A DNA stretch of 64,000 nt from Psammoneis japonica. Taxonomy: Eukaryota. The notes under the pieces were generated by a model, which had not been told where the DNA came from, ran no database searches, and saw only the letters and a list, made by a program, of their open reading frames with translations. Where the stretch lies: contig QPGO01000005.1 of NCBI GenBank assembly GCA_008632985.1, forward strand, positions 1,137,607-1,201,606, written 5' to 3'. Every line of letters starts with the position of its first letter. The first letter of the stretch is position 1. This document shows, in pieces, positions 12,311 through 49,800 of the stretch. The position numbers and the translations under genes were made by a program.

Positions 12311-12469
12311 TTCCTCAGAACCTGAAGGCGACATGAACGAAACCGAATCGTTAGTCTCCAAGCAATTGGGCGCCGGTTTGCAGCCAAGAGAACCCATTGG
12401 AAGTACCTCTGTACTCGATTTAGAAGATGCGAGCAACGTCTTCCGGCCGAGCATTTGTGAGACAGGGTT

Positions 12470-23284: not shown

Positions 23285-23450
23285 GCAGGCATCTTGAAAT
23301 GGATGTGCTGACCTGAAGGTGCATGCAGTGGGCATGTTGCCATGACTTGCTGGCCTCCAGCCAAGAGAGCAAACAGATGTCCTGGAGAAGTGCCGCAAGG
23401 CACTTGAACTTCAAAGAGCTGCAGCTCCTCGTCTTTGTTTTGTTGAGAAA
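23285..23450 (-). pseudogene. Eroded host-like motif (QLFEVxVP...F(A)LLAGG..V..TCP repeat seen in diatom proteins)
   Basis: ELQLFEVQVPCGTSPGHLFALLAGGQQVMATCPLHAPSGQHIHFKMP; recognised from memory only. Confidence 0.45.
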
Positions 23451-26400
23451 TGAAAGGAGTTTTTTTGTGTTTGGACATGTCCATCTCATTTTGCAGAGTC
23501 ATTCCCACAAATGTGGATTGGCAGAAATGGCATCTGACAGCATCTTGCATGTGCAAGCTGCTCAACAAAGTGAAACTGGCTCCGACATGACAAATGCAAG
23601 AATCTGTTTGAGAGCTTCTGTGGGAAGATTGAGGGAGGAAATTGATGAGTTCATCTCTTTCTTTCAACTGTTCACAGCATCATGTCAGAGCTTGCCAGAC
23701 TTCAGTGTTTTAACAAGGAAGAGCCATGAGAGGAAAGGGGCAAGTGAACATGCTTGAATGCAAGTTGAGGATGTTGTGAGTTGTTGATGCTGCGTGGCGG
23801 TGTCTTCTGAGTCCCGCTTGTGATTCAGTTTTTGGTGGGGCGGAAAATCTAAAAGGTGCTCGTGCACGTGCTTTTCTTCATGGCTGAAACTTTTCCAGCA
23901 ATTTGGGCCATCGCCACAATGATGATGGCATCAGAGCATCATCAGAGTGAAGCATCATTTTGATGGCACCAAATGCTGGTGCAGAAACTTGCTGTAGATC
24001 AAAGTCACTTGACAGCCATGATGCCTTCAGTCTCAATGGAAACGCACATTGTTCCCAGTGCAAGGGTGCCATCCATCAAGATGCACCTCAAGGTTTTTGA
24101 TCAAGAGAATCTGAGACATGTTGGCAACGTTGACGAGTTGTTTGCCTGTGATGCACTGGCAGGCATCAACCCAACCAATTGCAACTTGAACAAAGCAAAA
24201 GACTCAAATGAAACTCTCATTTGGCCAGGAGGCATTCGATTGCATGAAATTGGTGCAAACAATGCAACCTCAAAGCCCCCCAAATGCGGGCATTTTGATT
24301 CTGAAAAGTTCAAAACAGATGACGACATTGGCCAACATTTAACTCACAAAGCAGTTTCAGAATCAACAAATGGAACAAGAGAAAACATGGAAAGCATCTC
24401 TGAAGCCCTCTCAATGTGTGAGGGACAATCTGAATCAAACAAAGAGATGCCACCCTGGACCAATGGCCTGAGACCGCATTTGCATCAAAAGTTGACTCCA
24501 AGTGAGATTGTGGGCATGACAGATTCCAAAGCATTGGCATTGGCTCACAGAGCTCTGTTGCAGCAAACTGTTGATCATGATGGTGGTGGCCTGAGAGCCT
24601 GCTTAAAAGCTTGCACTCCTGCAAAGCATCACAGGCATGGCAGAGTCTCCATCAAGTTGGAACAAAGAAATGCACATTTGGTGCAGCAACTGGTCTGACA
24701 TTAAACTGCGGCTGTGAAAACAGCAAGGAATCTCCACTGCATTGAGGAAGCTTGCAAACAACTCAAGTCATGCCTGGAGCAACCCAGAACATCTCAAGTG
24801 GGGGCAATGGCAGACACGATGGCAAGATGACCTCCTTGCTTTTCTGCAATGCCACCATGCTTGCTTGAGACTAAAGCTTGCACCTTCAAGTGACAGATTC
24901 TTCATCCATGACAGAAGCAACAACCAGTGCAGCATGTTCACATGATGGAGAGTTCACAGTGAACAGAGGGTGCCAAGGCTGAATGAGGAGAAAATGGCTC
25001 AGAAGTGCCATCTGCTCCCCGCCCGTTCTTCATCTGTCATGACATCGCACGAGCAAGAGGACGCCTCAAAATGGCGGTCACTTTCACTTTGCTGACGCTC
25101 GTGCTTCTTTCCTCATCCATCTGCTCCAAACAGACTGATCTCATGGTTTTTGCCATGTTGGCTCCAAAGTCTGAAAGGCAGCAAATGTGTCTGATCAAGA
25201 AAAAGCAAGAGGAAGAAGAGGAAAAGGCAAAAGCCGCTGCCTCCAAGAATGATGAATCATCTCCACTGCCACCAAGTCTTTGCACTTCAAAATGAACCAG
25301 AAAAAAGACATCTTCACCAAAATCAAAAATGAAAAAAAAGATCGAGCCCAAACAACAATGGCGGCAAGCCGACAGATCAGAAGAAACATCTTAAAAAGTT
25401 GAGGGAAAAGCACACACAACAAAACTCTGCAACAAATTGATTGATTGGAGGAGGAAGATGCTGAACTGAAGCAGAGCAGCTCAGCCATTCTCAAGAAGAA
25501 AGCCGCCAGCGCCATTCCAAAAATGAGCACCGCTCCAAAAACGGGAGACATTCCTTGTTGAAAGCAAGCAGCTGCCGCTGCTGGTGAAGCAAAGCCAACA
25601 CCTTCACTCTTGCAAAACATTGCTCCTGGAAAAGTGCTGTTGTTTCAAAAAACTCCATCCACAAATCCAATGAGTGCTTCACTTTTGTCCAACCCCCTGC
25701 AGCCTCATGCTGTTGCTGCTGTCCAAGGCACTTCTCATGATTCAACCAGAGCTTGTCCATCACAAATGCAAGCATCAATGTCTGGCTCTGCTTGATTCTC
25801 AGCACCTGTGCCAGGAATGACCCCTCCTCCTGTCAGCGTTGACAGACAGCAAGCACAACAACATCAAGTTGCTTGTTCATTGTCCTCCAATTCCACCATC
25901 AACAGTTCCATCAAAATTGGCCAAGACGGAAGCACTGACAATCACAAGAGAAAGTGGCTCATTGACCTTGTTGGAAACAATCTCCTTCCATTGTCCAACA
26001 GGGCCTGCAGGGGCACAAACTCCATTCTCATCATCAAAGATGATCCACATTGGCTCACTTTCCAGAGAGCTGATGAAGGGCAAAGTTCAAGGTGGTCCGG
26101 GTGCAAAAGTGGGCCAGATTCCACGTGCATGGAGCTCAGTGTGTTTTCCACACAAATTGCTCAAGTCAGCTTGCCAACTTGAACCCTCTCCCAGATGATG
26201 GAAACTCAGACATTTCACATGACAAAGTGTTTGGACTGTGCAGCTGCACTCCCCTTGACTTGTTGCACCAGAGTTGACATGGAATTCACAGGGATGATGT
26301 TTTGAGCACCAACATTTGCATGATGACTTTCATGCCAAGCAAGGCATTTGATGTGCTGATGCCAATTTTGTGTGGCACGCCAATGACAAAGATGCAAACG

Positions 26401-26879
26401 CAATCCCAGCTACAAGACATGGCTTGAGATGACTTGACAAAAAGGACAACTGTGCTGGAACCAAGAAAAGACCCCCCAATCAGCTCATTGATGATCAGAG
26501 GACTTCCAACGGTTCCCTGAATGTCTGATGCATTGGTTGGCACACATGTGTCAGAGAGTGCACACTTGGTCTTAAGCTCACGTCCCCATTTTGTTCACTC
26601 TTCCCCTCCATGGTGCAAGAAACATGCACACCATTGGAGCCACTTGTCTCAAATTCAAAATTGGATGCATGCAAAGAAGGGAACCCAGATGTTGGGAAGA
26701 AGTGCTCAACTCCGATGCAGTGCCACTCCACAAACATTGATCTGCTCAACAACATGCAGTGCTTGCAGCACCAAAACAGTCCTGTTGGCATGGACTTGTT
26801 GTGCAATTCAAAATGGACCATGAGCTTTCTCCCCCATTTTTGCTGGATTCACAGACTCAATCAATGCATTTTGTCTGAT

Positions 26880-27770
26880 GTCCAGGAATGACGCTTTGTG
26901 TTCTGTCATCATGGGTTCTCATCAATTGACACTTGACGGTTGGCTTGAATTGCAGCAAGGTTGGCAACAACAGGTGGACCCAAAATCACATCTGGTTGGA
27001 ATGCCAGTGCCCCACTTGAGACACCCATGGACCTTGAATGGGAGCATTGCAGAGCAAAGGATGCAGTGGCAAGGGCATCATCCACTGTCACTTCAGCCTG
27101 CTGAACATTCAAAGGAGGGTCAGCGGCAACAACAACGCACAAAATGTCAGCTGCCGTCTGGTGCATTCATTCACAAATGACATTGGCTGCAGGATTCATT
27201 TGAAATTCCCAACCAATGAACTCACCACCATTGTCATGGATGCATCGACTTGGTCTGGGATGACAAGCTGACCAAAGGTTGCAAAACATGCCAGTGACAT
27301 GTTGAGACATTTTGTCATCAGCGCAGATGAGTCCAGTCAATCCAGCAACAGTGTGGGTGCAGGTGAGAGCACTGAACTCAATCTCTTGCTCTTGCATTGA
27401 CAATTTTTAGGGTCCAATTGGATCAACTGCTGCTTCTGACCATGGAGCCAACGGTGCTTGTTGTTGAGGCAAATCTCCACATCCAGGACCAAGTTGCTTA
27501 AAAAATGTTGACAGGCATCACAAATGAACTCATTGCAGTGCAAATGCAATGCAGGATGATGCAAGTGAATGCGGGTGCTTTCATGCAGACAAACGACTCT
27601 GCAATGCCCCAGCACACGATGACACCATGCAAGAACATCAGGCAACAATTCAGCAGGAGTGCAAATCTTCCATGCTCCAGGCGAATCATCCACATGAAAA
27701 CAATGGCAGATGAGAGGATGCTGATTCACAATCTTGATCACAAATTTCTGGGGAACTGTTGCTGCTGATT
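26880..27770 (-). mobile_element. Ty3/gypsy integrase relic
   Basis: VLAWCHRVLGH (zinc-finger region), PRPSRCIHDNGGEFIGWEFQ, ERMHQTAADIL...DDALATASFAL; frameshifted. Confidence 0.85.
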
Positions 27771-28640
27771 CAACTGATGGTCTTCAAACTAAAACTGCTG
27801 CAACCACAATGTCTCAACCGGCCTGTTCCAGCTCCAGGTGCTCCGAGTGGGTTCGATTCCCATCATTTGCCCATTTTCAGGTTCAACACAATTGGCTTTC
27901 ATTGACCACTCAGTGGTTGGTGATTGCAGACTTTTTTGTGTTGGTCAGGCAGTTGGGCAGTTGGGGGGTTGGGCAGTCGGGGGGTCCGTCCGAATTTGAA
28001 AGTGTGTCCCTCGGATTTTGGAATGGGATGGGTTGTTTGGCACAGATGAATCTTCGGATTTGTAGAATGATCATTGAGGACATGAGAGGTCATGGGGACA
28101 TCCTAAAAAATCGACAAATTCCCTGTGACGGGTGCGTGGAACGGTTTTTCAGGAGAGCTCGAAAGTTCTGAAAAATTGGGATTGCCGGCGTGGCATGTTC
28201 AAAAATGCACTCAGTTGCAAACAAAGATGATTTGTCATGAATTCTACACAAAACAGTCACATTGGGGAAAACACATTGAACAACAAGTGAGTTTGTGCAA
28301 TGCACCATTGTGGCAATAAATTGGAAAAAAAGAGTGTCCATGCACCTTGCTGCAGCCCCAAAAATGGCATGAGACATCAAATGCACCGGTCATCCGCATC
28401 ACTGGTGCAGTGGCCACGCCACTCTGCCGCCACAACACAGGCCCCCGGTGGCAGGGCCCCACGCACGTGCAGGCAATGCAGCATGCAACGGCACACACCC
28501 ACACCCACAAAGAAAGACAAGTGGTCAATGCTCCCCGCAGGCCTGGTTTCCAAATCCGTTTTTTGCCAAATCGAAGGGCAAGTGCACACTTCGCACATGT
28601 TTTTGGGTGCACACTTGCCTTTCAATTTTCGAAATGATCA
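27770..28640. mobile_element. ~0.9-kb unidentified insertion splitting the gypsy pol
   Basis: Gypsy-like coding sequence stops near 28640 and resumes near 27770; the interval is unrelated. Ends approximate. Confidence 0.5.
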
Positions 28641-29640
28641 AAATTGGGCCTCTTGCATGATGAAAAGCAGATCACCTGGAGCTGTGGAACAGGCCAACCA
28701 GGTTCTGCATTTCATCCAATGTCGGACAGTTCAAAAAGGATCCAAACAACTCTGGTTCATCCAGCAAAGAAGAAAAAGCATGAGATTCAGCAGAGGGGTC
28801 AACAGGAGCATGACAACACTTGAACCCACAAGTGTCCAACTCCAAATCCTCCTCTTCCTCAGCCTTGCTCAATTCACTGCCACCCAACTTCTCAAAGTGA
28901 TCAATTTTGCCTTTCCGTTTGCTGTCTGGACCAAGGCTCTTTCCCTCCTGAGGCAGATCCATGCATGTTGGTCAAGAAAACAATTGGCAAGCATGTTGTC
29001 CTTGCCTTCAACATGCTGAAAAGCAGGCAAGACATCTTTGAGAAACAGGCACCACACTGCAGGATGCACTGTGCATTCAGAGTGCAGAAAGTGAGATTCT
29101 TGTGGTCAGCATGAACATCAGCGTTGGTGCCAAGCAACATGGTGCGAAACTCCTTGAAACACATGACAACCGCCAAGAGCTCTTTTTCATTGTTGAGCAG
29201 TTGCTTTGTGCAGCTGAAAGCTTCTTGGACCAGTGCGCCACAGGTCGGCCATCTTGGACAACAGCCGTGCCCATTTGGCAGTCAGATGCATCAGCGCAAA
29301 TGTGGAATGGCAAGTTGTGGTTCAGATGTGCTGGCAATGCTTCAGAAGCAATGACGGCCTTCATCTCTTTGAAAGCCTTCTGGCATGTGTCCATCCATTG
29401 GAATTGACTCTTGCATGCCAGCTCAGTTGACGGCGCAAGCAAGTGAGAAGGACGAGGTCACACATTGCATGACAGGTTGCAGCACCCAGAAATGAACACA
29501 GTTGCGCAGCATTCTGTGGAGGTTGCATGCAAAGGATGGCTTCCACCTTTTTCTTCCAAGGCTGGACTCCAGTTGGCATGAGCCAATGTCCCAGGAAATC
29601 CATTTCCTGAACACACCATTCACATTTTGTCTTGCATTCA
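28640..29640 (-). mobile_element. Ty3/gypsy RT C-terminus and RNase H relic
   Basis: [25 protein letters not shown]...[21 protein letters not shown]...[19 protein letters not shown]. Confidence 0.9.
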
Positions 29641-32600
29641 ACACAAGCCTTCTCCAGGGCCTCTTGACACATGACGATGAACAATTTTGGTGATCAAGCA
29701 ATCAACAATCCACAAAACAAGAGAAACAATGCAACCCCAATTAACCCACACAATGAGAACAATCAATGGACAGACTGTGATGAGTTCAAGTGCAGCAATG
29801 CAAGTTTTGAGGTCAAACAAATGCTGCTCCGTGTCGCCAATTTCCCAAGTGCAATTGCACTGAGTGTTTGCTTGATTTCTGACAAGTTCCTCTGCTTGAA
29901 CATGCAGACAAATTTTCTCTCTTTGTGACAACTTTCTCTGCATTGCCACAGATTGACAATGAGATGAACAAGCCATGACAACAAGTGGAACCACAGTGCA
30001 AGATCTGGCTTGAGATGACTTGATAAAAAGGACAACTGTGTTGGAACCAAAAAAAGACCCCAGTCAGCTCATCACCAATTGGAGGGCTTCCAACGGTTCT
30101 CTGAATGTCCAACACGTTGGTCAATGTGCACGCATCAGAGAGGGCACACTCAGTCTTAAGCACATGTCCCTGTTTCGTTCACCAGCTGCACTTTCCTGCA
30201 ACAGCAAGGAAAATGACCACAAAATGACGGTGACCCAAACATTGTGCACTGTTGCACAAAAGTGCAGCCGGATGCAGACCAGGGACATCACATGTGGGGT
30301 CAATGAGTGCACGCTGGGCTGTGCACAAAACTGTTTCACCTGCCACCTCTTGTTTGAAACCAAAAATTGGTCAAATTGAAAATTTGAGCACACCTTGCAT
30401 GCCAAAACCGACCATTTTCTTTCAATCTGTCTGCGGACCCAGTTCAAAAAACGATCAGAAAGTTGACATTTTGACACACAGGATTTTCAAAAACTCAAAA
30501 TGGACCCATTCTGCTGATTTTTGAGAGCGGGTCTGCCAACACCTCATTTCCTTGTTGTTTTCAGTGCAAAAATGTGCAGCTGTCGGCCAAAAATTCCATT
30601 TTTTGATTTTGAGTGAGCACTTCCTTCTTGTTCCTTTTTGACCACAGGAGCCACAGGGCCGTGCTGTTTCCCACTGATGGTGTCTCTGAACACATGAAAT
30701 GGCCCAGTTGTGTGCATCCCCCGTGCTGTGTCCTGTGCTCTTTGCAGGTGGTGCGCATTTGTCACTGCCAGCATTGACACATCTATCACCATCTCCTTTG
30801 GGTTCCTCTTCTTCCGTGGGAGGCGTCGATGCTTCCTGAGGATTGACTCCTGCCTTTCTGACATGGAGCTCGTCTCGCCACTCACCGCGGCCGAATTCAT
30901 CCCGCCAGTTTCTGCCATTTTCGGCCGAAAATTCTTCAGTGAACATGACAAAACCTTGCCACTGCTGCATGAAGTGTGACACCATCAATGCAAAAGGAGA
31001 CAATCCGTGAATGCTGAATGCTGTTGACACAGTGCAACAGCCAGCACAAGACGTTGCCAGACGCCGGACGCCGCATGCATGGGACGCCGCGGACACCGAA
31101 TTTTCTGAAGAGAATGAGAAGGCGAAGTGCGGGACGACGCGACTCTGGACAGCATCTGTCCAATTCAGTTCTCTCGTCAGTGCGTTTCTGGTGTTGCAAT
31201 GGCAATTTTTTGACGTGCGAAAAATGAGAAGAGTCTGTCCAGCGTTCACCGAAAACTCCGTACACACTGATTAACGGGCTGTTTGGTACCAATTCTACGC
31301 AAGATTCTTTGGACAGAAGCTGTCCAGATCCGTAGCGCCCACATCCCACATCCACATCCCTCATTCATTCGAGCCAACTCGATTATGTTGGTGTTGTTTG
31401 TTGGTCAATGTGCTGCGTGCTACAGCTTCAGTTTGTTTGATAAGCACTCGTTTCTCCCTCCTCTGTTTGCTCTGGTGATCCGGAAATCGATTGCTGCAGC
31501 CAGGCTGTCATTTGTGGAAATGCACTTTTTTTCACCTGTACATATCGCAGTAGCATCTGAAAAGACAGAGTGAAATCAATGCGAGAGCAAGAACGTGTGA
31601 GTTACTGGTGCGCATGGTCTTTCCGCGTTGATTGACCAGGCACTCCCTGCCCCATTCATTGACATCGTGAAACTGCCCAGCCATGCATATGCGATCGAGG
31701 ACGGCCAGTATTGCCATTTTTGAAGAACAAAGACCTACTTGGCCACTCGTGGCCGTCAACTCCAGCATATCTACTTCTACCAGACCATCAATAAACATGC
31801 TGATTTGTTGAGAACCAAACTTGTTGGATATGTCGATGCATGGGATCAACAACATGGCACATATAGCAATGGTGTTACTGTGGACAGTTAGCCCAATCCC
31901 ATGTTGGCGGCACATACGCGATTCTCAGATTGTGCTAAGGATGATCGGCAGTGCAACAAAGGAGTTTGGAAGACACTGGATATACAGATTGTTGGAAATG
32001 AGTCCTTCGGATATGATTCTATCGAAAGAGATCTGTTTTCGTGTCGAATCACTTCGGTCTATTGATGCGGCTTGTATCTCAGTGAAAGAGGCTGCCGTAG
32101 GTCATTACTGTTTACTTCTTGAAACTGCAGTGAGCGTGCTCGGGGATATAGATAATGTATCACAGATTTCTTACGTCGAGACCATTATCCTTGGTGATAT
32201 CCGATTCAAATAATTTGATTTTTCCTTATCAAGAACATGGTTAGTGCTCTCTTTGTTGATGAGAACCTGGTATCTCGGAGCTACCCGGCCATCGAAGAAA
32301 CTTGAGGGCGCACTCCAGTATTTCCCGGGTTACGATCAGAGGTCTCCGGGGGTCTCAAGGTCGTTGGATCGAAGGATCTCTCGTACAGTGCAACGTCGTA
32401 GGAATCGACAAGGAGAACTCTCACTCTTGATAGCTTCCGGTTGAATATAGCTTGGGTTGCGGTTCTCCTCCCTCCGGGTGCTGGCCTTCCATTCTCTGGA
32501 GTCGGTAGAGATATCGGAAGCAAGTCCTGGTAGAACGCATACAGGTAGAGAGTTTGAGATAGCGGGAAGCGGCTAGCTAGTCAACTCTTATGGTAGGTCG

Positions 32601-32834
32601 TTGGATAGATCTAATGGCGCGCATTCAAAGTACGGCTCAGCTACTTCCTTATTATCACGGCAGACATTACTATCGATCGATCAAATACATCCAGCTCTTC
32701 AGTTCGAGAGAGGCTGAAGTGCGGAACGGAGCATTCCATAAAGATGAGATACCGTTTCGAGTGCCGTGGAAGTGGATCAGCACAACGGTATTGCAACTAC
32801 ACCTCCCTAAAGTTTCTTACTTCTACGACAGGCT

Positions 32835-34559
32835 CTAGCTAGATGCCTGGCCACCTTGGCGACCCATGTGCGCATAAAACGCAGAATCCTCCTCACTTGT
32901 TTTTCGCTTCGTTACCACATTCTCTTCGTACCGTTCTCGACGTTTCTGCGATTTGTTCAGCGCGCTAATCTTCTCTTCATATGTTGTGCCCCGTGACCGT
33001 TGCAACAATGGCACATACGCCATCTCTCTCGCTCCCAACGGGTCTGCCTCAAGCTTTCTTTTTTCCATCCAAGTAAAGGCTTCTCCCCATGTAACTAAAG
33101 AACTCGAGGATAACGTAGAGGTACTCGTTGAATTTTGCATATCTCTATCGCCAACATCATTCTTAGAGCTGAATTGCCTTTGCTTCTTCTTGCGTTCTTG
33201 GAGCCTCGCCTCAACAAATGACTGGACATCTTCATTGGTGACAGACTCGTTTCTCAGGTCCTGGATGCTGTTTCGAACACGTGCAGCGGCTAAAGCTAAC
33301 TCCTCCCATTGCTGCTCCAACTGGCAAGTAACTTTCCAAAAGTTCTCAACGTTGAATCCAAATTTGAGATCAGGATAACCACAAGCATGTAAAACCAAGG
33401 GACGTTCGTCTGCAAGGTGGTAACTTGGCTTTCCGGGATTCTCCTCGACGTTCAATAACTCCTTGATAATCGATGGGCTTTCCAACCCTTGGCCCACGAG
33501 AAACAAGACGCTCGCAATGCATCGGATCTGATGCCACAGAAACGCTTGCCCTTTTATCTCTAAATAGCACACGTCATTATTCTGCGGGGCACTGGAAGGC
33601 AAAACAATATCAGCAGAGAGTATTTCTCGCTCAAAATTGTAAACTTTCTCCACGTCCATTTTGCAGAAATTACGAAAGTCGTGTTTTCCGATCATCAACT
33701 TGAGAGCTTCTTCCATCTTTTCGATGTCTAAACTCCTGCGCACAAAAAAGTATCTGTAGGTACGAGTACTCGCTGAGAATCGAGCTGAAAACTCTTCTGA
33801 TACAGGCGACCATCCAAGGATCCGAATGGTGCCAGGCAAAACATTGTTGAGAATCTTGGCGTAGGAGTATTCCGTGATTGTTTTCTTTATTCTGGGTCCG
33901 TCTCCCTTTTTGGGGGGCACCCAAATCGTGATTTTGTCGAGAGAATTGCGTGGCAACCTGTCGTTGTCTACTAGCAATTGACCTTCTTCGTCCCATGAAG
34001 CTTCCTGATGAATAGCACTTTTCAGTTGGAACGCGACTACTTGCCCAGCCGCACTCACTCCTTTATCTGTCCGACCACAACGTGAATATCCACTTGACGC
34101 TCGTGACTGAACCAATCTCGTCTTCATGAGCGCTTCAAAAAGTGCCTTCTCAACTGATTGATCGCTCTCCATCCCTACATTTTGAGCTAGCCCGGTGTAA
34201 TTGCCGCCGTCGTAGTAAAAGTTTAGCGCCACGTGCCTGGTTCTATAAGGAGCGAGATCAGTGGTACGGGATTGATTTGCCTTCTTCTTATCTGGAGAGG
34301 TCGACTCTGAACTTTTAGGGCTTTTCTCCGCCGCCGCGCTTTCCGGCTTTGCTAACTCTGTGAGCACCGACTGGTATGCTGACTTGACACTTTCTGGCAA
34401 CACCACCTTTGTTTCCAACAGGTGATTCAACAGTTGCAACGGTGATGGCACGTCATCGTCCTTTCCGTTTGCGACAAACCCAACTCCACAATCAGGAAGT
34501 CGCCGCAAAAGCGTGGAAAGTCTGTCGCGGATACTTTCCACTTTATTAATAATATTCAT
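32835..34559 (-). CDS. PUS3: tRNA pseudouridine synthase, TruA family (Pus3/Deg1-like)
   Basis: 574-aa intact ORF with RHVALNFYYDG, YSRCGRTDKGVSA (catalytic Asp), FSARFS, HDFRNFCK, AFLWHQIRCI. The first ~22 codons lie inside a transposon end. Confidence 0.92.
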   Translation of the reverse strand: MNIINKVESIRDRLSTLLRRLPDCGVGFVANGKDDDVPSPLQLLNHLLETKVVLPESVKSAYQSVLTELAKPESAAAEKSPKSSESTSPDKKKANQSRTTDLAPYRTRHVALNFYYDGGNYTGLAQNVGMESDQSVEKALFEALMKTRLVQSRASSGYSRCGRTDKGVSAAGQVVAFQLKSAIHQEASWDEEGQLLVDNDRLPRNSLDKITIWVPPKKGDGPRIKKTITEYSYAKILNNVLPGTIRILGWSPVSEEFSARFSASTRTYRYFFVRRSLDIEKMEEALKLMIGKHDFRNFCKMDVEKVYNFEREILSADIVLPSSAPQNNDVCYLEIKGQAFLWHQIRCIASVLFLVGQGLESPSIIKELLNVEENPGKPSYHLADERPLVLHACGYPDLKFGFNVENFWKVTCQLEQQWEELALAAARVRNSIQDLRNESVTNEDVQSFVEARLQERKKKQRQFSSKNDVGDRDMQNSTSTSTLSSSSLVTWGEAFTWMEKRKLEADPLGAREMAYVPLLQRSRGTTYEEKISALNKSQKRRERYEENVVTKRKTSEEDSAFYAHMGRQGGQASS

Positions 34560-35538
34560 ATATATTGAAATATGAAATTATTAATATGTTATGAATAACT
34601 TATATTTCCGTTGTTATATTGCCCTTATAACCTAAGTAATTTTGGTTCGCAACCGTTGAGTGATAATGTTTTATATATATAGTGATAAAGTGTTCATTAA
34701 AAGAGGATCATTATGACCGTTTTTGATCAATGACTTTCCACGATAGAATTACATCGTGGAATACTTTCCACGATGCTATCGTGGAAAGTGAAGACTTTCC
34801 ACGATTGTAACGTGGAAAGTCATATGACTTTCCACGATGACTTTCCAGCTTTCGAGGCTTATGTAAATGCCTGTACGTAAAATAGGGTCATATGACAAAA
34901 TTTTGATCTCATCGCAACGCCTTGATGCCTATAAATCTTGCCATTTTCCAACATGATTTTGGAACAACTTGTTCAAGAGCCGGGCTCGGTCTCCTTAATG
35001 CACGCATCAAGAACTTCGCATGCCTTTCGGAGACGTTTCGCCACGGCATCAAGAAGCATCGACGATGCTTCGAGGCCTGTGCGTGATTGCGCAATACCAG
35101 AGTTGGATGGAATGTGGCTCACCCCTCTTTGACATTTAGAGTGTGTGACGTCACATCACGATGTTTCTAGTCATTAACATTTAACAAATGACTTTCCACG
35201 ATGAGCAGTCATTAATGACTTTCCACGATATTAAATGACTTTCCACGATAGCATCGTGGAAAGTAAAGACTTTCCACGATAGAATTGAATCGTGGAATAC
35301 TTTCCACGATGCGACTACCTTCCGTTGAATTATGACTGCATTGAATAATCGTTGTATTCAGTAATTAAATGTGTTTGAATTGATTGGGCAGAAAGTATTT
35401 TTTCAACGGAAATTGAGAGGGCAATGTGAGGATTCAGATGTCCTGTTCACGTAATCCCATTGTAGATTCTATACTGAGAAGTGCGAGCGTGCCCAGCACG
35501 ACACTCAACGTACTTTCCACGCTTTTGCGGCGACTTCC
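34495..35538. mobile_element. ~1.04-kb non-autonomous TIR DNA transposon (MITE-like)
   Basis: Perfect 27-bp inverted repeat GGAAGTCGCCGCAAAAGCGTGGAAAGT at 34495-34521 and 35512-35538; many internal direct and inverted ACTTTCCACGAT motifs; no transposase; no clear TSD. Confidence 0.8.
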
Positions 35539-36087
35539 AGAGAGTGACATTGAGTCATGCTTGCCAGAGGAGAGACTTGGGACGTGGCAAGCAGCAGAAG
35601 ACACCGTAAAGAGATGAGGCGATGAGCGATGATGTAGAAGCAGCAAGCGTCAATGACTTTCCACGACATCAAATGACTTTCCACGATGGCATCGTGGAAA
35701 GTAAAGACTTTCCACGACAGAATTGAATCGTGGAATGCTTTCCACGATGCGACTGCCTTCCGTTGAATTGTGGCTGCATTGAACAATCATTGTGTGCAGC
35801 AGTTGAATGTGTTTGAATTGATTGGGCAGAAAGCATTTTTTCAACGGAAATTGAGAGGGCAATGTGTGGATTCAGATGTCCTGTTCACGTGGTCCCATTG
35901 TAGATTCCATGCTGAGAAGTGCGAGCGTGCCCAGCGCGACACTCAACGTACTTTTCACGCTTTTGCGGCGACTTCCAGAGAGTGACATTGAGTCATGCTT
36001 GCTGGAGGAGAGACTTGGGACGTGGCAAGCAGCAGAAGACACCGTAAAGAGATGAGGCGATGAGCGATGATGTGGAAGCAGCAAGCG
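35212..36087 (+). repeat. 438-bp tandem duplication (35212-35649 and 35650-36087) covering the right TIR and flank
   Basis: Ungapped manual alignment. Confidence 0.95.
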
Positions 36088-36115
36088 ACGCCCCACGCAC
36101 TGGCCTCTCACTGAC

Positions 36116-36438
36116 TGAATGACACCGGTCTCAGAAAGTTGGAGGGCAGCAGGGTGCAGCCAAGCTGTTGTCTTTCTTGTCAGTGCAGGCTGCACCAGCA
36201 CTGTGCTTTGTGTGTGGCGCGGCGTTGGCATCAGTGTGCTTTCGCGTGAGAAATTGAATGGATGCCACCATGATGGCCAAGAATTGGGTGTGAGACAAGA
36301 CAGAGTGTTGAACAGCATCAACAGGTTCTAGAATTGTGAGATGTTGTGCTGCTGGGGCCACTGGACAAGCGACAGTGGACCAATCACCAACAGTGCATGA
36401 ACTGCCTGCATCTGTGACAGCACATCAGCATTTGTTCA
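36116..36438 (-). repeat. Putative 3' LTR of the copia element
   Basis: On the minus strand it starts TGAA right after purine tract GAGGGGAC and could end TTCA at 36116. No second LTR in the window. Confidence 0.4.
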
Positions 36439-36559
36439 GTCCCCTCGAACTGACACTGGCTTTGCTCGGGTCAGATCGACAGACAAATGCAACCTGATGC
36501 TGCCCCATTCCAGGGTGGCAGTTGTGTTTTGGGGGTGGGAAAAGCCGCACCTGCACGGC

Positions 36560-38160
36560 AAACCCATTTGGTTTGCCCCCTTTTGGGACTTGCCATGGGA
36601 CATGACTGATGATTTCCCGGAGCTTCGGTCCAGGCAACAACTCAGTTGGTGCATCCGCCAGATTTGTGCGTCCATCCTCCCAAGCAATGCGCAATGTTCC
36701 AGCGGCTTGTGCCTCATGAGTCCTGTGACAGGCAACTGCATTGTGCTTCTTCTTCAAAGTGGACTCTGGCCCAGTTGAGTTCTTGAAGACAGCTTCATTG
36801 TCGCAGAAAACGTCAGTGGCCCCATCCATGGGGATTCTGAGCATCCAAAGCTTGCAATGCAAGGCTTCGATTTGCTCCACTGCAGTCTTCACAGCCACGA
36901 ACTCCGACCCAAAAGTGGAGGACTCTGCGGCATTCTGCTGCTTGGAGTGACACAAGATGGGCGCTCGTTGGACAAATGTCAGGATCCCAGTGTGGGACCT
37001 GCGCGTCACATGGCATCCGGCGTGATCAGCATCGACAAAGCAAGCAGTTGCTCAAACACCAGCACAGACTTAGAATGAGCCTTCAAGTGTGCAAAGACAT
37101 GGAGCACTTCATCCAGGTGTCCAACTTGTGGTGCCGCCAAGTGGGAGGACATGAGCAAGACAGCGACAAAAATGTCCACTCGCCCCAGTTCAACTGCCCA
37201 CCGCAGCACACCAATGAGTCCTTGACAGCAGTTGGCCATTTTGGCGTTCAACTCAGGTGAACCATCCAGTTCAGGCCTGTGTCCCGAGCTCAAGGGCGTC
37301 GACGCCTTCGTCGGAAGACACCCATCAGTTTTCTCAAGCTCCAATTCAACGTCAGCTGATGCCCTTTTGACACAAAGGTCAGAGGACATGGCCCAGCGTG
37401 TCTCACCGTCCAAGTCAGACAGCTGGTGCTTTCTGATCTGGGCGCCCAAGTGCTCTTCCGGTTCGCAGACGCTTCGTCCTTGAGCGTGCACCTGGAGCTC
37501 ATGCAATCCATGACCTTCTGAGGTTCATGGGAGACACACAACAAGTCATCCACGTAGACAAGTGCGTGTTCCCAGCACTTGAAGCCATCCGGCTTAACCG
37601 CAGCCCACGTCCAGACATCCGGGTCAGCCTTGCAAGACTCAAATCCAGCGTCCCGCAGAGTGGCTGCCACATGTTCCCTAAATCTTGCACCTGAAGACTT
37701 GAGACCATGCAAGGCACGGACAATGATCGCCGGCCTTCCTTCGTTCTAGTTCCCAAATTCCAGGCCAGCAGTGGTGCAAGACTTTTCCTCAGTGTGTGCG
37801 TTCAAGCAGGCATTCTGAACATCAGCGCTCAGGACCTCCAGGTCATTCAGAGCTGCTGCAGTGAATGCTGTCCCAATGCTGTCACGCAACACCACGCTGG
37901 AACATGTCGATTCCTTGGGTGGATCGGTTTGATGGCCTCCGGCCGGAACCTCGCTTTGCGTTGGAGGGTGCTCTTGATGTCAAAGATCACATGACAATCA
38001 ATGTGTTTGCACCCGACCGGTGCAGCATCGTCATCGCGGAATTCAAACGCAGGCATGACGTTGCGCATTTCCTTCTCGACAGCCTTGAACCAGAAGTCGG
38101 TCCCCATTCTGTCATCTATTTCTACAGCTTCCTTGACAGATTTTGGGAGTTTGTCATGGC
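36560..38160 (-). mobile_element. Ty1/copia (CoDi-like) RT-RNase H relic, 5'-truncated
   Basis: FWFKAVEKEM, HVIFDIK...RKARF, HGLKSSGA, ADPDVW, LVYVDDLL, LRWAVELGRVDI, ESSTFGSEF, FCDNEAV, STLKKKHN, NLAD; frameshifted. Confidence 0.93.
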
Positions 38161-40204
38161 AGTGTTTGTTCACTTTGTCAGAGCCAGCGCGCTGTGATGT
38201 TCCTTGCCTGGAATGTGCATCGTGAACGGCACGACGGTGTTGGTGGCATTTGTTCAAAAACTCAAGCTCATCTGTGCCACAACATTGTGTGGATGCAAAC
38301 AAGAAATGTCAACCTGGATCAACAATTCTGCATCCCCAATGACGACGATTCCTCTGTCTCTGACAGTTTTGGACACTGTGCAAACCGCCGCCAGTTGCTG
38401 TGCACACAGACAAATTCTCATGACCAACCATTGGTCCACTCAGAAATTGAAAAGGAGTTGCCTCTTGCATTCTGCCACAGGCTAAAGAGCTTCAACCCAG
38501 AGCTGGCCAGTCATTCAGTGGACTGTGATGATGTGGATCACCTGTCACTTTTGCTCAACAAATTGTTGTTGTTGTTCCACTCCTTTTGCAGCTGTGGTTC
38601 TTCCCTGTGCTCATGAACCAATCGTGTTGACATTGAATGTCACCTTGTTCTTCTGATGTTTGAGCTGCGCAGCACAATCAATCGTGGCAAAGGCACACAT
38701 GGATGGAAAACGTCAAAGTTCCACAATCTGCTTCACTTGATGACTGCTCTTTGTTGATTGGGCACATTTTCTGGATGGGATGCCGCAGCGGGCGAGTCTG
38801 GTCTAAAGAAATGGGCAAAGCTTCCCAGCCAGACCTGCCAAGCCTCGCAAGGCAAAGAAGAGTTCACCCGCCAGCTTGCAAGCCAACTGCACAAGCAGAA
38901 TCTGTTGGAGAGAGCAAACAACTTGATTGTTTGTCCCCTTGCCACTGACAATTTGCCACCCAGCACAACATTGCACCACGACCTGGGGCACGCAATGTCC
39001 ACAGTTGACCAAGTCGAAAAAGCATGCTGCGAGTGCACTGGAACCCAGGAGATGAAAAGGGAATGAAGTGCTCATTTGGAGGAGGACATTGTAGATTTTT
39101 TGTGCCATCGCAACCAGTGGGGAATCAGACGGAGACACGTTGTGGTGTGTTTTGAGTCAAATCTACAGGCGGAACACAAGTTGAGATTTTGTGCCCACCC
39201 CAACTGTTGCAAGGCCGGGTGATGGCATGACTTTGCATGTGTCACATGCAGAAATGACAATGGAGCTGACAGCTTGTTTCCAGTGCAATTTTTTGCCGTT
39301 CTGAGTGATGACAAAAAAGAGGTTGTTGTTTTTGGGAGAACATGCAAGAAGCAAAGCGACATTGAAAGGGAAATGAGTGAGAACGGTTTGTTTCAGCATT
39401 GGCGAATGGAGGGCACATCACCCAAACACACCTTTCGACACAGTCAGAAAAACATGCTCATTGGTGGCGGCATGGGTGTTGTCTTGCCAAAGACAGCTCT
39501 GATTGACAGAAGGAAGAAACAAAAAAAGGCCCAAAACAAAAAAAAGTGTTGAGAACAATTTAGAGGACAGCACCAAGGCAACCAGTTTGTCTCTGTCCAG
39601 CTCCATGTCTGATCAAGAGCTCTTGGACAACAAGACATTGTTTTTCCTTGACATGAAGGATGAGTGGCCGGACATCTTTTTAAATGGCGACATGCACTTG
39701 GGAGGCAGGAGTGCATGTGAAGTGAGACAAATTGTCAAAACAAAGTTTTTTTCCTCACATGATTTTCCCGAATTCCATCAGCGTCATTTGGCAGAATGCT
39801 GCAAGGTTGGAATGTGACCACACACTCTCCGGGTCAGTTGTGTGGTTGCACTCAGCAACAAATTCCTCCAGTCTGCACCATTTGTCGACTGCAAAGAACT
39901 CGATCCTGTGTTTGAATCCATGTGTTTTGCGGCAGCAGTGCACAACTCCTGGCATTGCATGGGAAAGAAGACTGTGCCATCGTCACGCAGGAAAATGAAG
40001 TCCTCTGTCAAACCATGCTTCTTTGGACAGCGCAGGTGGCAAGAGAGCTGGTCCATGCATGCCACAGTCGCTGACATTTTGTTGTTGAGCATCAGTCTCC
40101 GCGCAGCTTCGCACATCTTCTGCACCTCCTCCAGTGTGATTCTGCCGGAATGTTCAACAGGACAGCTGTCTGCTGCAGTGTCAACACATGCCAATTTGCT
40201 GGGG

Positions 40205-40710
40205 CTTTTGTGTTTTCCCTGCATTTCCGTGCTTTCATGTTTTCCCGCATTTCCTTGTTTTTGTGTTTTTGCACATTTCCATGTTTTCCCGCATTTTCGT
40301 GTTTTCGTGTTTTCCCACATTTCCACGTTTTTGTGTTTTCCTGCATTTCTGGGTTTTCATGTTTTTCCACATTTCCATGTTTTCATGTTTTCCTGCATTT
40401 CCATGTTTTTGTTTTTTCATGTTTTTCCATGTTTCCGTGTTTTCATGTTTTCCTGCATTTCCATGTTTTTGTGTTTCCCATGTTTCCGGGTTTTTGTGTT
40501 TTCCCGCATTTCTGTGTTTTGTGTTTTCCTGCATTTCCGTGTTTTTGTGTTTTCCTGCATTTCCGGGTTTTCGTGTTCTCCCGCATTTCCGTGTTTTCAT
40601 GTTTTCCCACATTTCCACGTTTTTGTGTTTTTCCACATTTCCGTGTTTTCATGTTTTCCTGCATTTCTGTGTTTTCATTTTTTCCATGTTTGCCTGCATT
40701 TCCATGTTTT
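40205..40710. repeat. Degenerate ~19-27-bp minisatellite (ttttcc(c/t)gcatttcc(g/a)tgt-like)
   Basis: Tandem units directly visible. Confidence 0.9.
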
Positions 40711-41274
40711 GACGTGTTCCAGTCCCAGGTGACACACAAAACGACAATCGATTTTGAACATGAGGCATGCACACATTAGTGTGTGAAGCATTTTCATGTG
40801 AAATGCTCAAACGGATTGGCTTTTACAGGCATCTAGAGTGTGAACAATTGTGAAGAATTGAACAGTTTTTTGTGGGGTGTCAAATTCCTCATGGGACATG
40901 CATCACAAACTTCCTCAGTGGACTCAATGCTGATTGTGCGTCCGCACTCTTCATGCGCAAATTTCTTTGCAAGTGGCAAACACACTGAAAACCATTGCAG
41001 AAAGATGTGTTTGGTTGACATCCAAACAGCGGCAACAATTTCGCCAAAAATCATCCGTTGTGTTACGATTCGTTTGTCGCAATGAAAAACATTGATGGCA
41101 CAATGACAATGATTTTGCAACACTCACACGAGTCTTGCCAGTGTTGCAAAACATTAGAATTTGAACAAATCTGTGCTTTTGGTGGTGAAAAACCGTTCGC
41201 AAGTCAGAGACCGCGCAAAAATTGCGCAAATGTCGTTTTTGCACACGATTTGGGTCACGTGCGGCTGGAACACG

Positions 41275-41550
41275 TCTTTTCATGCATTTCCGTGTTTCTG
41301 TGTTTTCATGATTTCCCGCATTTCCGTGTTTTTGTGTTTTCCCGCATTTCCGTGTTTTTGCAATTTCCTGGTTTTTGTGTCACCCCGCATTTCCAAGTTT
41401 TTGTGTTTTCCTGCATTTCAGGGTTTTCGTGTTTTCCCACATTTCCGGGCTTTCCTGTTTTCCTGTTTTCCTGCATTTCAGGTTTTTCATGTTTTCCCGC
41501 ATTTCCTGGTTTTCATGTTTTCTCTCATTTCTGTGTTTTCCTGCATTTCC
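41275..41550. repeat. Second block of the same minisatellite
   Basis: Same unit as 40205-40710. Confidence 0.9.
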
Positions 41551-42924
41551 AAATCATGTGCAGCACACGACTGTCATGTGCGTGTCTGCAATTGAATGTT
41601 GTTGTTTGTGCGTCAATCGCACCACAGTCACAGATGGGTGCGAAGGACAGAACGATCACACAGAGTTGGTCAGAAGTCGAAAATTGCAAACACAATTGAT
41701 TGACAATGTTGGCTTCTCACGTGTCAACAGCAATCACACCTGGACAATCTGTTGTCACGAACATGTTTTCTGAAAGGCCTTTTGTCTGCAGAAGCAGTGC
41801 AGAAGCTTTGGGCCATTGAGAACTCCTTCGGAGAAACCAAAAATCACAGAGCAAAGTTAAATCTCACAATTTTCACTTTTCGCACTTCATTCTGCTGTTG
41901 TTTGCACTCATTCTTTGAGCACAGTGCATTGTGCATGCACACCACAGAAGGCAAAAACATGACAAAAAATGGGAGTTGAGGGCACAAAATCACAAAGGGC
42001 ACAAACTTTCCTGGGGCACAAAAAAAATCACTGAGTGGAGTGAGAGTGCAAAATGGCAGCTGAGGGCTCAAAGTTGCAAAGGGCACAAGTTGGCCAAGGG
42101 CAGCACAAAAGGCACAAAGGGCACGAAGTGGCCAGCTGCAAAAAACCAGGAAGAGCAAAAGTGCAAAGTGGCCAAGGGCACAAAATCATGAATGGAAAAA
42201 TGGCGGTGGCAGCGGGCAGCAGTTGTGCCACCATTGTGACTCAAGTTGTTGTCGCAGCTGCCCTCATGCTGTCATTGTTGCACTTTACAAAAAAGCCAAG
42301 ATGCGGCACGCAAGGGGACAAATCGGTGAAATCTGTCTCTGCATCATGGGGAAGCCCATTTGTCCCCCATGATGCGCTCATTCTCGGCTCTGCATGTTGG
42401 GGGTCACAGCATGTTGGGTGAGCATGTCAACCTCTCCCCCCCAACATGCCATTCCCGTGCCATGCACGCTTTTGTTGACACGCCACAGAAGCCATTTTGC
42501 TTGACCTGGCTTCATCACGAGTGTTCTTTGATCAACAGCTGCAGGTGATGTTGCCCTTTTTTTGTGGTGTCCTCTTTTGTTGCTGATGTGTCCACTCCAC
42601 GTCAGCTCTCCATTTTTGTGGGCGCATGCCTCCTCGTCTCCTTCCCTTGTGTTGCCATCCACACCACCGGCGTTGCGCTCCATTCTGCCCAAACACATGT
42701 GTTGTTTGAAGCAACAAACCCTGCTCTGCTTTCCCAAGGCATTTGCGGCAGTTGCCACGTTGGCTTTGCTCCAGTGCCCCCAGTGCCAAACACTTGCACC
42801 ACAAATCTTGTTTGATCAGCGCCCTTGCCAGCGGGCTGTGTCCCTTCAGTGCCCCCCACAACATGTGGCGGGTCATGTGCAAAGATTGTCCTCGATTTAA
42901 AGACCGCCTTTGGAGCTTCATGGA

Positions 42925-46800: not shown

Positions 46801-49800
46801 GTTGGCAGCGGTGTGTTTTGAAGTGGGAGGGGAAATCTGACCTTGCGTCGCGACATTGCACGACGTTTGCCATGGTCCATGGTGTGCCAGAATCTGACAT
46901 TGTGTTGGCAACATCAGCAGTCATGTGGGAACAGCATGAAAAATGAGCAGCAGAGGGAAATCTGACCTTGTGTTGTGACGCTGCATGACGTTTCACTGTG
47001 GTGAGCCAGAACCCAACATTGTGGTGGCGACATCAGCAGCTGCATGAGGGCAGTGTGAAAAACAAGCAACAGAGGGAAATCTGACCTTGCATCATGACAT
47101 TGCATGATGTTTTGCCGTGGCAAGCCAGGGTCTGACATTGTGCGGCAGGCATCCCCACCGTGGCCACCGACGACGCCACTTTCCTGCATCTGCAGGCTGT
47201 CCGCAGCGATGCTGATCCTGCAGAAGCGTGCTGCAGAAAGCACGACACCCAGCGCAAGACCTGCAACAGGCCACAGGAGTGACCCGCATGACTGAGACCT
47301 GTGCAGCTGGCCATCACACAAGTGACTCGCCTTGTGTGAAGGGTCTGCTCAGGATGCACGCAGTGCCGAGCATGAGCCTGTGAATTGGCTCAGCATGAGT
47401 GTCAGCCAAGTGCTGCAAAAGACTCGTGCTCAAATCTTTCCAATGACTCATCACGCAAAAAGAACCCCCGCTTCTTGGAAAAAGACACCACCACGCATCT
47501 GCACTCTGGCCAAAACAATCTCACAATTTTTGCACACACAGAAAACAAATCTCCATCTCTGTGGTTTGGGTGCTTGTCCCCCATTTCTGCGTGGGTCAGC
47601 TGCAGCCATGGCATTGCAGCATGTGTCAAAATGGGGGACAAGTGGTTGCCAACTGCCAAGGTTTCATTGCAGCCAACGAGCGGTCCAAGGTGGCAAAGGG
47701 CACAAAACCACAATGGCCAAAAACTGCTGAAGGCACAAAATCATGAGGGGCGCCAAATGTGGCTGAGGGCCCAAAACCAAAAAAGGCACAAAATGGCCAA
47801 GGGCACAAAGTCACAAAGGGTGCAAAATGGCCAAGGGCACAAAACCATGAGATGGGGCAAAATGCTCAAGGGCACAAAAAAAGGATGGGGCACAAAACAG
47901 CCAAGGGCACAAAAAGGTCAAGGGCACAAAGCCAAGAATTGCGCAACATGGCTGGGGGCACAAAATCTCAAAGGTGCCCCCAGTGCCAAACACTTGCGCC
48001 ACAAATCTTGTTTGGTCAGCGCCCTGCCAGTGGGCTGTGTCCCTCCAGTGCCCCCTGCAACATGTGGCGAGATTGTTCTCGATTTGGAGCTTCGCAAAAT
48101 GCGAAAATGCGAAAATGCGAAAATGCGAAAATGCGAAAATGCGAAAATGCGAAAATGCGAAAATGCGAAAATGCGAAAATGCGAAAATGCGAAAATGCGA
48201 AAATGCGAAAATGCGAAAATGCGAAAATGCGAAAATGCGAAAATGCGAAAATGCGAAAATGCGAAAATGCGAAAATGCGAAAATGCGAAAATGCGAAAAT
48301 GCGAAAATGCGAAAATGCGAAAATGCGAAAATGCGAAAATGCGAAAATGCGAAAATGCGAAAATGCGAAAATGCGAAAATGCGAAAATGCGAAAATGCGA
48401 AAATGCGAAAATGCGAAAATGCGAAAATGATGTGACGCACCAAATTCCGTTGAGAGTGTCCAGGTTCCGACCTCAGAGACGATCGCATTTTTCAGTTTGG
48501 CAAAACGCCATTGTCCGTGCTGTTTTGCGTGTTGTTTTGAGCCGCAGAGCCAGAGAACACTCCCAAAAAATTGCTCTGAAGGGCAAAATGTGCTGAATCT
48601 GCACAGATTTGGGTTGCGCCAGGCCACGCAGAAAGTGAGCAGGCTAAAAACTCCGGCGCACCCACTTGAGCACATTCAACAACTGGCTGACAAAAGACTG
48701 GTTGACTGCTTTCCCAAAGCACCGCTTGTGTTGTGCCCTTCCCCAGCTGCTCTCCAGCTGGTGCCGTGGAGTGCAGTCGCTCAATTTGGATTGTGTCTGC
48801 AACGTCATTTGCAACAAACGTGGCTGCCGCTTTTCACACATTGTCTGCCAAACAGGTTTTGGCTCCAGCTCGTGTGTCTCAGCGCAACCCGCCGCACGGC
48901 TTTCCTCATCCCCCAGCCCACTGCCCCCCTCCTCCACTTTTCTGCCGACTGGCTCCAGCCCTGGGTGGGACTTTTTGCAACATTTGCCCTGCAGAATTCC
49001 ACGTGCGAGCTCTGCAGTTCGCACTCTGGTCAGTGGACATGAATGCCAAAAGTTGTTGAATGGATCGCCCGGCAATTGTGCTGCAAAGCGATGCAAAATT
49101 TCTCCAAAATCACTTGGAAACGCACGTGCGCGACATGCGACACGATTCAAAAAACTGTCGATGTCACAATTCAGCAGTGCGAGGTCCCACCCAGACCTGG
49201 GGCGCATCTGCCACGCTCTGCCACAATCTTCCTGCAAAAATCCTCCCTCTTGCATTTCCTGGGCGCACTCCCTTCCGCATCTCCGTTCTTGGAGTTCCCT
49301 GCCGTGAAGCGCTCCAGGCATCTCGCGCACTTTTGTGCAAACAAGTCACATGTTTCCAGGTTGTGAACTGCCTCACAGCCAAAAGAAGCAATCTTTGCCT
49401 TTAGAATCACCATGGTGCGCTGGTCTGCCAAATCAAACTCAGCATCACCATGGACAGTCGGGGAGAAATGTTGTCAAAATTGCGCAATGACGTGTTTGAG
49501 CTCTTGAGAGCTCACCCAGCTTGAGACATCATGGCTCCAAGTCGCCATGTTTGTCACGAACTCTTCCTGATGCTGTGTCTGTGACTTGAATTGCCGCGGC
49601 CATCGCACTTCAGAGATGACATTCTTGACAAGAAAAAGCACCCCTGGGACGCGGTTGGAGACAGATTTTCAATGGGTGCTTCTCATCTTTGTGGAACAAA
49701 GCTCAGTCATCATGCTTGCTGTCAGCTGGATTGTGCCGCTCCTTGTCGAACATGGAAAAGTGCTCAGATTGGGCTGCTGCAATTGGCAGTTTTGTGTGGC

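Follow-up and report, generated by a model that had tools for sequence, protein, structure and literature searches.

TpA-purged repeat blocks and a tyrosine-poor copia relic in a diatom-like genome

In fungal repeat-induced point mutation (RIP) of ascomycetes, CpA is converted to TpA, so that TpA rises. A process acting on TpA itself has been described in the chlorarachniophyte Bigelowiella natans (Mettrop et al., bioRxiv 10.64898/2026.01.13.699255): two viral regions integrated in its genome gained 231 de novo mutations, of which 230 were A>G or T>C, and all GC-biased mutations there fell on TpA, giving TpG or CpA. The preprint also describes 124 TpA-poor clusters, rich in CpA and TpG and with an excess of reverse-transcriptase and DDE domains, and names an ADAT2-like enzyme as candidate; its Discussion adds that ADAR prefers a U 5' of the edited A. 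For diatoms, Maumus et al. 2009 (PMC2806351) describe the CoDi (copia of diatoms) retrotransposons, and report cytosine methylation of the long terminal repeat (LTR) retrotransposons of Phaeodactylum, on preliminary evidence in CpG context. Here we analyse 64,000 nucleotides of Psammoneis japonica contig QPGO01000005.1 (assembly GCA_008632985.1, positions 1,137,607 to 1,201,606, forward strand; hereafter the window, numbered from its first letter). It carries the dead 3' half of a CoDi-like copia retrotransposon, lying at one edge of a repeat block that measures 28 kb or more. Our reading, to which we give a probability of about 0.75, is that a DNA-level, strand-symmetric process converting TpA to TpG and CpA has been aimed at the repeat blocks, with CpG decay alongside.

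The observed/expected ratio (o/e) of TpA is 0.22 for the whole window, and its 1-kb profile is bimodal, with three TA-void and two TA-normal blocks (dinucleotide values below are o/e; the blocks have no strand):

1-7529: TA-void block 1; TpA 0.02, CpG 0.25
7530-22186: TA-normal block with host-like genes (ABM domain, FUT8-like, Peptidase_M66/TagA); TpA 0.61, CpG 0.95
22187-31260: TA-void block 2; TpA 0.04, CpG 0.29
31261-35649: TA-normal block with a tRNA pseudouridine synthase open reading frame (ORF; 32838-34577, minus strand); TpA 0.65, CpG 0.99
35650-64000: TA-void block 3, running off the window and holding the copia relic and a 6.2-kb tandem array; TpA 0.04, CpG 0.51, CA 1.64, TG 1.71

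CA and TG reach 1.64-1.85 in the void blocks versus 1.10-1.17 in the normal blocks, ApT is not depleted (0.80-0.91), and the block edges are sharp to about 100 bp. The TpA loss belongs to whole repeat blocks with sharp edges, not to the relic alone. Both strands of the void blocks, including 36090-64000, hold 62 TAA and 40 TAG triplets versus 1165 TGA. Long open frames crowd both strands of these blocks; in the window, 81 ORFs reach 150 amino acids (aa) or more, many of them overlapping.

The block structure could in principle arise without any targeting, if TpA were hypermutable genome-wide and its loss visible only in old, unselected DNA, genes being protected by selection. The void blocks are indeed devoid of recognisable live genes, and their CpG decay shows age. 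Within the normal blocks, however, long ORFs have a TpA o/e of 0.58 and the remaining DNA one of 0.66; non-ORF DNA keeps its TpA there, and coding selection is therefore not the cause of the block contrast. The sharp edges also speak against an untargeted process, which we regard as unlikely; two further observations that argue against it, from a tandem duplicate and from public relatives, are given below.

The relic is seen on the minus strand of 36,300-38,700 as reverse transcriptase (RT) and RNase H in shifting frames of the translation. A search with its RNase H piece gave 1308 matches, of which the best 120 were looked at; most of these carry RVT_2 (PF07727), the nearest named relative among them is that of the diatom Epithemia (63% identity), and the 49 relatives of at least 1300 aa among them formed the conservation set. 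Searches by tblastn showed that the relic covers residues ~823-1384 of a 1384-aa relative, with 55-76% identity to polyproteins of 1300-1430 aa carrying RVT_2. Pfam gave nothing at E<=0.01 for the relic pieces, the best being RVT_2 on one piece (E=0.078, 13 bits versus a cut-off of 31.6); since Pfam is blind to them, their identity was taken from the relatives. The following features were located:

36593-38152, minus strand: RT/RNase H half of a dead CoDi-like Ty1/copia polyprotein (tblastn with five intact relatives)
38152-37946, 37943-37476, 37473-37049 and 37048-36593, minus strand: the four reading pieces of the relic (tblastn)
37944-37945, minus strand: 1-nt deletion, a frameshift (tblastn offsets; some other copies in the sample have one base more)
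37746-37748, minus strand: in-frame stop TAG (translation; contigs of the same sample)
37474-37475, minus strand: second 1-nt deletion, a frameshift (tblastn; contigs of the same sample have an extra base after the C at 37474)
37048-37049, minus strand: junction of a deletion of ~40 codons, with the relatives' residues ~1193-1233 gone (tblastn)
36576-36584, minus strand: polypurine-tract-like AAAAGGGGG, directly past the end of pol (sequence reading; putative function)
36203-36565, minus strand: putative 3' LTR of ~360 bp with approximate limits (most highly repeated part)

The ALVYVDD core of an RVT_2-type RT is kept. Comparison with contigs of the same sample (2416 contigs; differences are given for the best-supported 40 of 612) showed CAG-type letters at the stop position in 15 of 15 other contigs of the copia family, so that the TA of this stop (37747) was newly made by C>T. 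The summed depth of these contigs rises from 120-490 to about 19000 at 36206, and the highly repeated stretch of ~360 bp behind the polypurine-like tract is probably the 3' LTR. Neither a second LTR nor, at E<=1, any match to gag, protease or integrase was found in the 64-kb window, and the 5' half of the element was not found there. Its relatives identify this segment as what is left of a dead CoDi-like Ty1/copia retrotransposon: the 3' half, with RT, RNase H, polypurine tract and probably an LTR. The label CoDi-like draws on a relative named from a diatom and on diatom-like host genes.

To compare the relic with conserved columns, its four pieces were aligned one by one with the last 680 residues of each of the 49 relatives. 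Among the 236 columns with at least 90% agreement among these relatives, 201 are kept in the relic. Tyrosine (Tyr) is kept at only 1 of its 14 columns, the replacements being 7 Cys and 6 His, whereas the other residues are kept at 200 of 222 (22 lost; Fisher p=2.3e-11). Arginine (Arg) is kept at 12 of 19, and the lost ones became 2 Gln, 2 His, 1 Trp, 1 Gly and 1 Ser (Fisher p=8e-4). Tyr is the most frequent residue at 21 columns, and at these the relic shows 11 Cys, 8 His, 1 Gln and 1 Tyr. Individual sites are:

codon 37709, minus strand: ALHGLK; Tyr in 49/49 intact relatives
codons 37577 and 37568, minus strand: KCWEH; Tyr in 47/49 and 49/49
37554-37556, minus strand: TAC, the sole surviving Tyr codon (Y of YVDD, context C-TA-C) and the only Tyr in 518 aligned codons
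codon 37281, minus strand: SGHRPELD; Tyr in 48/49
codons 37230 and 37227, minus strand: NCCQ; Tyr in 49/49 and 34/49
codon 36940, minus strand: KQQN; Arg in 225/240 relatives
codons 36859, 36856 and 36847, minus strand: LHCKLWM (translation)
codon 36730, minus strand: ACHR (translation)

An original prediction, made from the letters of the window, had placed a copia relic at 36560..38160, in close agreement with the tblastn limits of 38152-36593. It had named seven motif changes (HGLK, CWEH, LHCKLWM, ACHR, GHRPELD, CCQ and KQQN), each of which is present in the minus-strand translation at its predicted place, and had taken the Tyr of YVDD near 37555 for a rare survivor, which the TAC at 37556-37554 bears out. 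Its further claim, that changes of Tyr to Cys or His and of Arg to His, Trp or Gln fix the direction of mutation, also holds, as intact relatives have Tyr and Arg at these sites and three of the Arg sites are backed by contigs of the same sample: these read CGT at 36718 (His in the relic), CGG at 36847 (Trp) and CGA at 37128 (Gln). The direction would have to be given up if Cys and His, and His, Gln and Trp, were native to this copia lineage and not mutations. Some relatives do have C or H at single sites, for instance 10/240 at 36949. The three Tyr columns of the RNase H piece, however, have Tyr in 198/240, 235/240 and 230/240 relatives, and most of the other columns have it in 47-49/49, so that the contrary evidence which the prediction had named, intact relatives with Cys or His at these sites, does not hold up against it; moreover, the element is broken and other copies keep the three Arg codons. 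We give native residues next to no credence.

The nucleotide context of the changes was examined for 80 mismatches at columns conserved to at least 60%, for each of which a one-base change was sought that turns a codon for the conserved residue into the codon found in the relic:

TpA>TpG: 19 of 80
TpA>CpA: 13 of 80
ambiguous, TpA-type or transversion: 1 of 80
CpG>CpA: 7 of 80
CpG>TpG: 3 of 80
ambiguous, CpG-type or transversion: 2 of 80
other AT>GC transitions: 5 of 80
other GC>AT transitions: 3 of 80
transversions: 16 of 80
more than one step: 11 of 80

The TpA context thus holds 32 of the 37 inferred AT>GC transitions, and in 46 intact homologous regions 11-26% of the A/T bases lie in TpA (binomial p=2e-14). 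Changes at residues other than Tyr follow the same rule: a T ends the codon before every I>V, M>V, K>E and T>A change, and an A stands behind the changed base of every V>A, I>T and L>P change, giving GCA, ACA and CCA. The relic retains 7 TA (o/e 0.08), versus 46-127 (o/e 0.48-0.91) in the same ~1.6 kb of 46 metagenomic relatives. In a metagenome survey, all 80 loci of intact relatives have a TpA o/e of 0.50-1.03. The purge is specific for one dinucleotide, has one polarity and is symmetric between the strands. These results agree with the original prediction in three respects: TAY to TGY or CAY is TpA loss (32 single TpA steps among the 80 mismatches), CGN to CAN or TGG is CpG decay (10 single CpG steps), and the two processes are both seen to end in TG or CA, on which they were predicted to converge. 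The tblastn comparison and the tabulation of codon changes by dinucleotide context that it had proposed, made here with intact relatives, yielded strong enrichment of TpA and Tyr changes.

Strand symmetry bears directly on whether the changes could have been made in RNA. ADAR-like A-to-I hyperediting of the retrotransposon transcript, fixed by reverse transcription, would have the matching 5'-U preference, as ADAR prefers a U before the edited A, and retroelements do pass through RNA. Had the genomic RNA been edited, the sense strand should show A>G alone, whereas its products are 19 TpG versus 13 CpA, which is near equal (binomial p=0.38). The purge also includes non-element flank, a tandem array and at least 28 kb of unbroken DNA, and an origin in edited RNA is very unlikely.

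The edge of void block 3 runs through a tandem duplicate:

35214-35649, no strand: copy 1 of a 436-bp tandem duplicate, outside the purged block; 20 TA kept
35652-36087, no strand: copy 2 of this duplicate, within the purged block; TG or CA in place of 16 of the 20 TA

The two copies differ at 26 places; at 16 of these the outer copy reads TA and the inner one TG or CA, and at none is it the reverse. They have 20 (outer) versus 4 (inner) TA and 23 versus 23 CpG; in this edge flank the purge is ahead of CpG decay. That copies lying 436 bp apart should differ in this way is the first of the two observations that argue against TpA being hypermutable genome-wide. Since highly repeated DNA begins only at ~36206, the purge extends about 0.5 kb into the low-copy flank. 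Between 36040 and 36121 there are 8 places with TG or CA in the window and TA in paralogous same-sample contigs.

The duplicate has some further features of its own. Each copy begins with a cluster (35180-35310 and 35650-35750) of a motif of ~13 bases, GACTTTCCACGAT, which occurs in both orientations and as short palindromes; the cluster sits between the pseudouridine synthase gene and the repeat block. Four single bases of the window (35789, 35830, 35851 and 35358) are contradicted by all or nearly all same-sample contigs, which may be due to residual assembly errors, another haplotype or contigs of the duplicate's sister copy.

The void blocks retain 95 TA in all, and these are not a random sample. 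Survival, counted as TA left out of the sum of TA and TG/CA forms in the void blocks, depends on the flanking bases:

ATAC/GTAT: 0 of 1200 surviving
GTAC: 0 of 792 surviving
ATAT: 1 of 497 surviving
TTAA: 25 of 655 surviving
CTAA/TTAG: 24 of 1107 surviving

We hold loosely that the purge works best at R-TA-Y and worst at Y-TA-R. In mixed contexts, the product that an attack on the A of 5'-TAY would leave exceeds its level in the normal blocks by 28 per kb, versus 9 per kb for the other product.

Two other repeats of the window are:

28904-29457, minus strand: Ty3/gypsy-like RT_RNaseH relic in void block 2 (alignment of relatives)
43435-64000, no strand: tandem array of a ~6.2-kb unit in three full copies and one partial copy, 96-97% alike

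The Ty3-like relic has all 3 of its Tyr-majority columns changed (to His, His and Cys), and two pieces of 126 aa are without Tyr (149 and 62 of 150 relatives aligned). The three full 6.2-kb units have 255 variable sites, comprising 112 of CpG type, 115 other transitions, 8 related to TA and 20 transversions; majority polarisation of these sites is unreliable. For the 6.2-kb repeat, this shows that the purge took place before amplification or was already complete by then. Pfam gave no match on the first 6.2-kb unit. The array also holds an internal microsatellite with a period of 8 bp at 48096-48429. A further stretch inside the void block, 40200-41550, is internally repetitive with copies 74-81% alike, and its AT skew is strong (-0.29 over 40001-42000).

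As TpA loss is near complete while CpG decay is partial, the process appears to have been fast and targeted rather than a slow decay. Public sequences point the same way. Five of 240 public relatives (P0243, P0321, P0249, P0283 and P0323; protein records of copia RNase H fragments) are Tyr-poor, with 0-1 Tyr in 154-207 aa versus a median of 3.5%, and the Arg codons of the Tyr-purged relatives are mostly intact. In P0243, all 3 Tyr columns have become Cys with 1 other mismatch in 96 conserved columns; the loss of every Tyr column with almost no other change points to a fast, specific process, and such copies are the second observation that disagrees with genome-wide hypermutability. Judging from these protein records, the TpA signature seems to occur elsewhere and can precede CpG decay.

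The void could also have been written by the sequencing, if a modified A or T at TpA, and 5-methylcytosine (5mC) at CpG, had been misread as G or C in heterochromatin during long-read base calling or assembly. Nanopore data contain systematic miscalls at modified bases, and a 50:50 ratio of TG to CA would fit strand-wise miscalls; at a handful of positions, 35789 among them, the window also disagrees with every same-sample contig. On the other hand, 397 of the 2416 contigs are at least 99% like the window, most of that stretch being void DNA, and 68% of the sampled 31-mers of 31000-39000 were found exactly in sequencing run X1. None of the 40 differences with the best support restores a TA inside the relic, which has in addition two frameshifts, a stop, a deletion and a truncation, and Tyr-purged relatives are found in 5 independent public protein records. 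A base-calling artefact is possible but unlikely.

Several observations weigh against a purge aimed at repeat blocks as we read it. The best-supported differences between the relic and other copies are of CpG type, none restoring TA in the relic proper, and the TA-related variable sites of the 6.2-kb array are only 8 of 255; the copia family may have been purged once, before amplification, and not in each copy. The run type of the same-sample contigs is not on record. In the metagenome survey, none of the 80 loci is purged, where the search patterns were intact motifs and so biased against purged copies. The model of flank preference fits only 12 of 18 directly polarised events, and the word targeted rests on one 64-kb window.

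The mechanism that we propose for a targeted purge is as follows. In a repeat block, nearly every TpA would be changed to TpG or CpA by a process acting on DNA. TpA is its own complement, so that A>G at 5'-TA on either strand gives both TpG and CpA. Such a purge would remove the TAY codons of Tyr, but also many ATA, GTA and CTA codons and TA across codon borders, while a slower CpG decay of the 5mC type would act in the same blocks and turn Arg into His, Gln or Trp. It would be aimed at blocks of repeats and transposons and not at the whole genome, with a spill of ~0.5 kb into the low-copy flank. The enzyme may deaminate adenine that has a T on its 5' side, the resulting inosine pairing with C, or it may modify thymine into a base that mispairs, and its recruitment may depend on the chromatin or methylation state of repeat blocks. 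By analogy with what has been proposed for B. natans, the process may serve as a defence that disables mobile DNA. In its widest form, for which we see slightly better than even chances, diatoms would run a TpA-specific, block-targeted 'inverse RIP' that clears transposon and repeat DNA of all TpA, and with it of all Tyr codons and of TAA and TAG stops; it would outpace CpG decay and reach a few hundred bp into the flank, and together with that of Bigelowiella it would form an old adenine- or thymine-editing defence across algae of the stramenopile-alveolate-Rhizaria (SAR) group, with the 5'-TAY preference as the footprint of the enzyme.

The genes in the normal blocks point to the host lineage. 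The named relatives of the pseudouridine synthase ORF are all pennate diatoms (Nitzschia, Cylindrotheca, Pseudo-nitzschia, Amphora, Seminavis and Mayamaea; 46-52% identity), and by this homology the host genome appears to be that of a pennate diatom. A dinoflagellate with 5-hydroxymethyluracil (5hmU) at TpA had been considered and was dropped, as the named relatives of this host gene are all pennate diatoms. The Peptidase_M66/TagA-like gene at 19111-21979 (plus strand), in a TA-normal block, is made up of three successive ORFs joined via introns or frame changes; Peptidase_M66 and TagA are Pfam families named for bacterial proteins.

The one report so far of hypermutation restricted to TpA is a 2026 preprint on a single chlorarachniophyte; if true here, the process would reach a second major algal lineage. 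Either the bimodality of TpA o/e or Tyr-less transposon ORFs provides a simple scan for any assembly. In void blocks, gene finders would call false genes whose 'proteins' lack Tyr, and Pfam models miss the relics. As diatoms are genetically tractable, candidate deaminases can be knocked out.

A literature search, with subscription journals and closed supplements outside its scope, found no report of TpA loss in diatom transposons beyond the B. natans preprint. The accessible text of two papers on diatom transposons (PMC2806351 and bioRxiv 10.1101/2025.10.24.684338) has no mention of 'TpA', 'dinucleotide' or 'hypermut'. Two apparent hits were discarded: PMC4504042 matched as a TpA report through the word 'Tpase', and PMC9258296, matched as a hypermutation report, concerns antibodies. 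The TpA-purged repeat compartment of this diatom-like genome is a second case of a kind described once, in another algal lineage.

Compared with the CoDi lineages (PMC2806351), the relic shares an RVT_2-type RT with YVDD and a C-terminal RNase H, and differs in keeping the 3' half only. Its CpG decay resembles that caused by CpG methylation and deamination: CpG o/e in the void blocks is 0.25-0.51 (versus 0.95-0.99), Arg CGN codons have become CAN or TGG, and 112 of the 255 differences in the array are of CpG type. Such decay, however, accounts for only 10-12 of the 80 mismatches at conserved sites and cannot remove TpA. Editing by ADAR or APOBEC enzymes is similar in its deaminase-like clusters of transitions, its preference for a neighbouring base and its aim at mobile or foreign nucleic acid; in contrast to the pattern found here, on both strands and in non-element flanks, these enzymes act on RNA or single-stranded intermediates and are strand-biased.

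With RIP, the purge has in common the wrecking of repeats and transposons by transitions only and in a fixed context, the distinct blocks beside genes and the leakage into flanks. Its polarity is opposite: TpA o/e here is 0.02-0.04 (15- to 30-fold depleted), and CA and TG rise to 1.6-1.85. One of two tandem copies is affected (20 versus 4 TA), unlike recognition by repeat pairing. The closest likeness is to the hypermutation reported for B. natans, which acts on TpA only, yields TpG and CpA on both strands and affects foreign or repeat-like regions beside normal DNA. Here, likewise, 32 of 37 AT>GC transitions lie in TpA, 16 of 26 differences between the duplicate copies are of this kind, and three void blocks alternate with two normal ones. 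The hosts differ, B. natans being a chlorarachniophyte (Rhizaria) and the host genes here being diatom-like, and so does what can be seen of the process, which was caught live in mutation-accumulation lines of B. natans and is met here in its end state. According to the preprint, the large viral region of B. natans has a Rho(TpA) of 0.45, whereas the blocks here stand at 0.02-0.04; and in this locus, unlike in that report, CpG decay coincides with the purge, RTAY is preferred over YTAR and about 0.5 kb of flank is drawn in.

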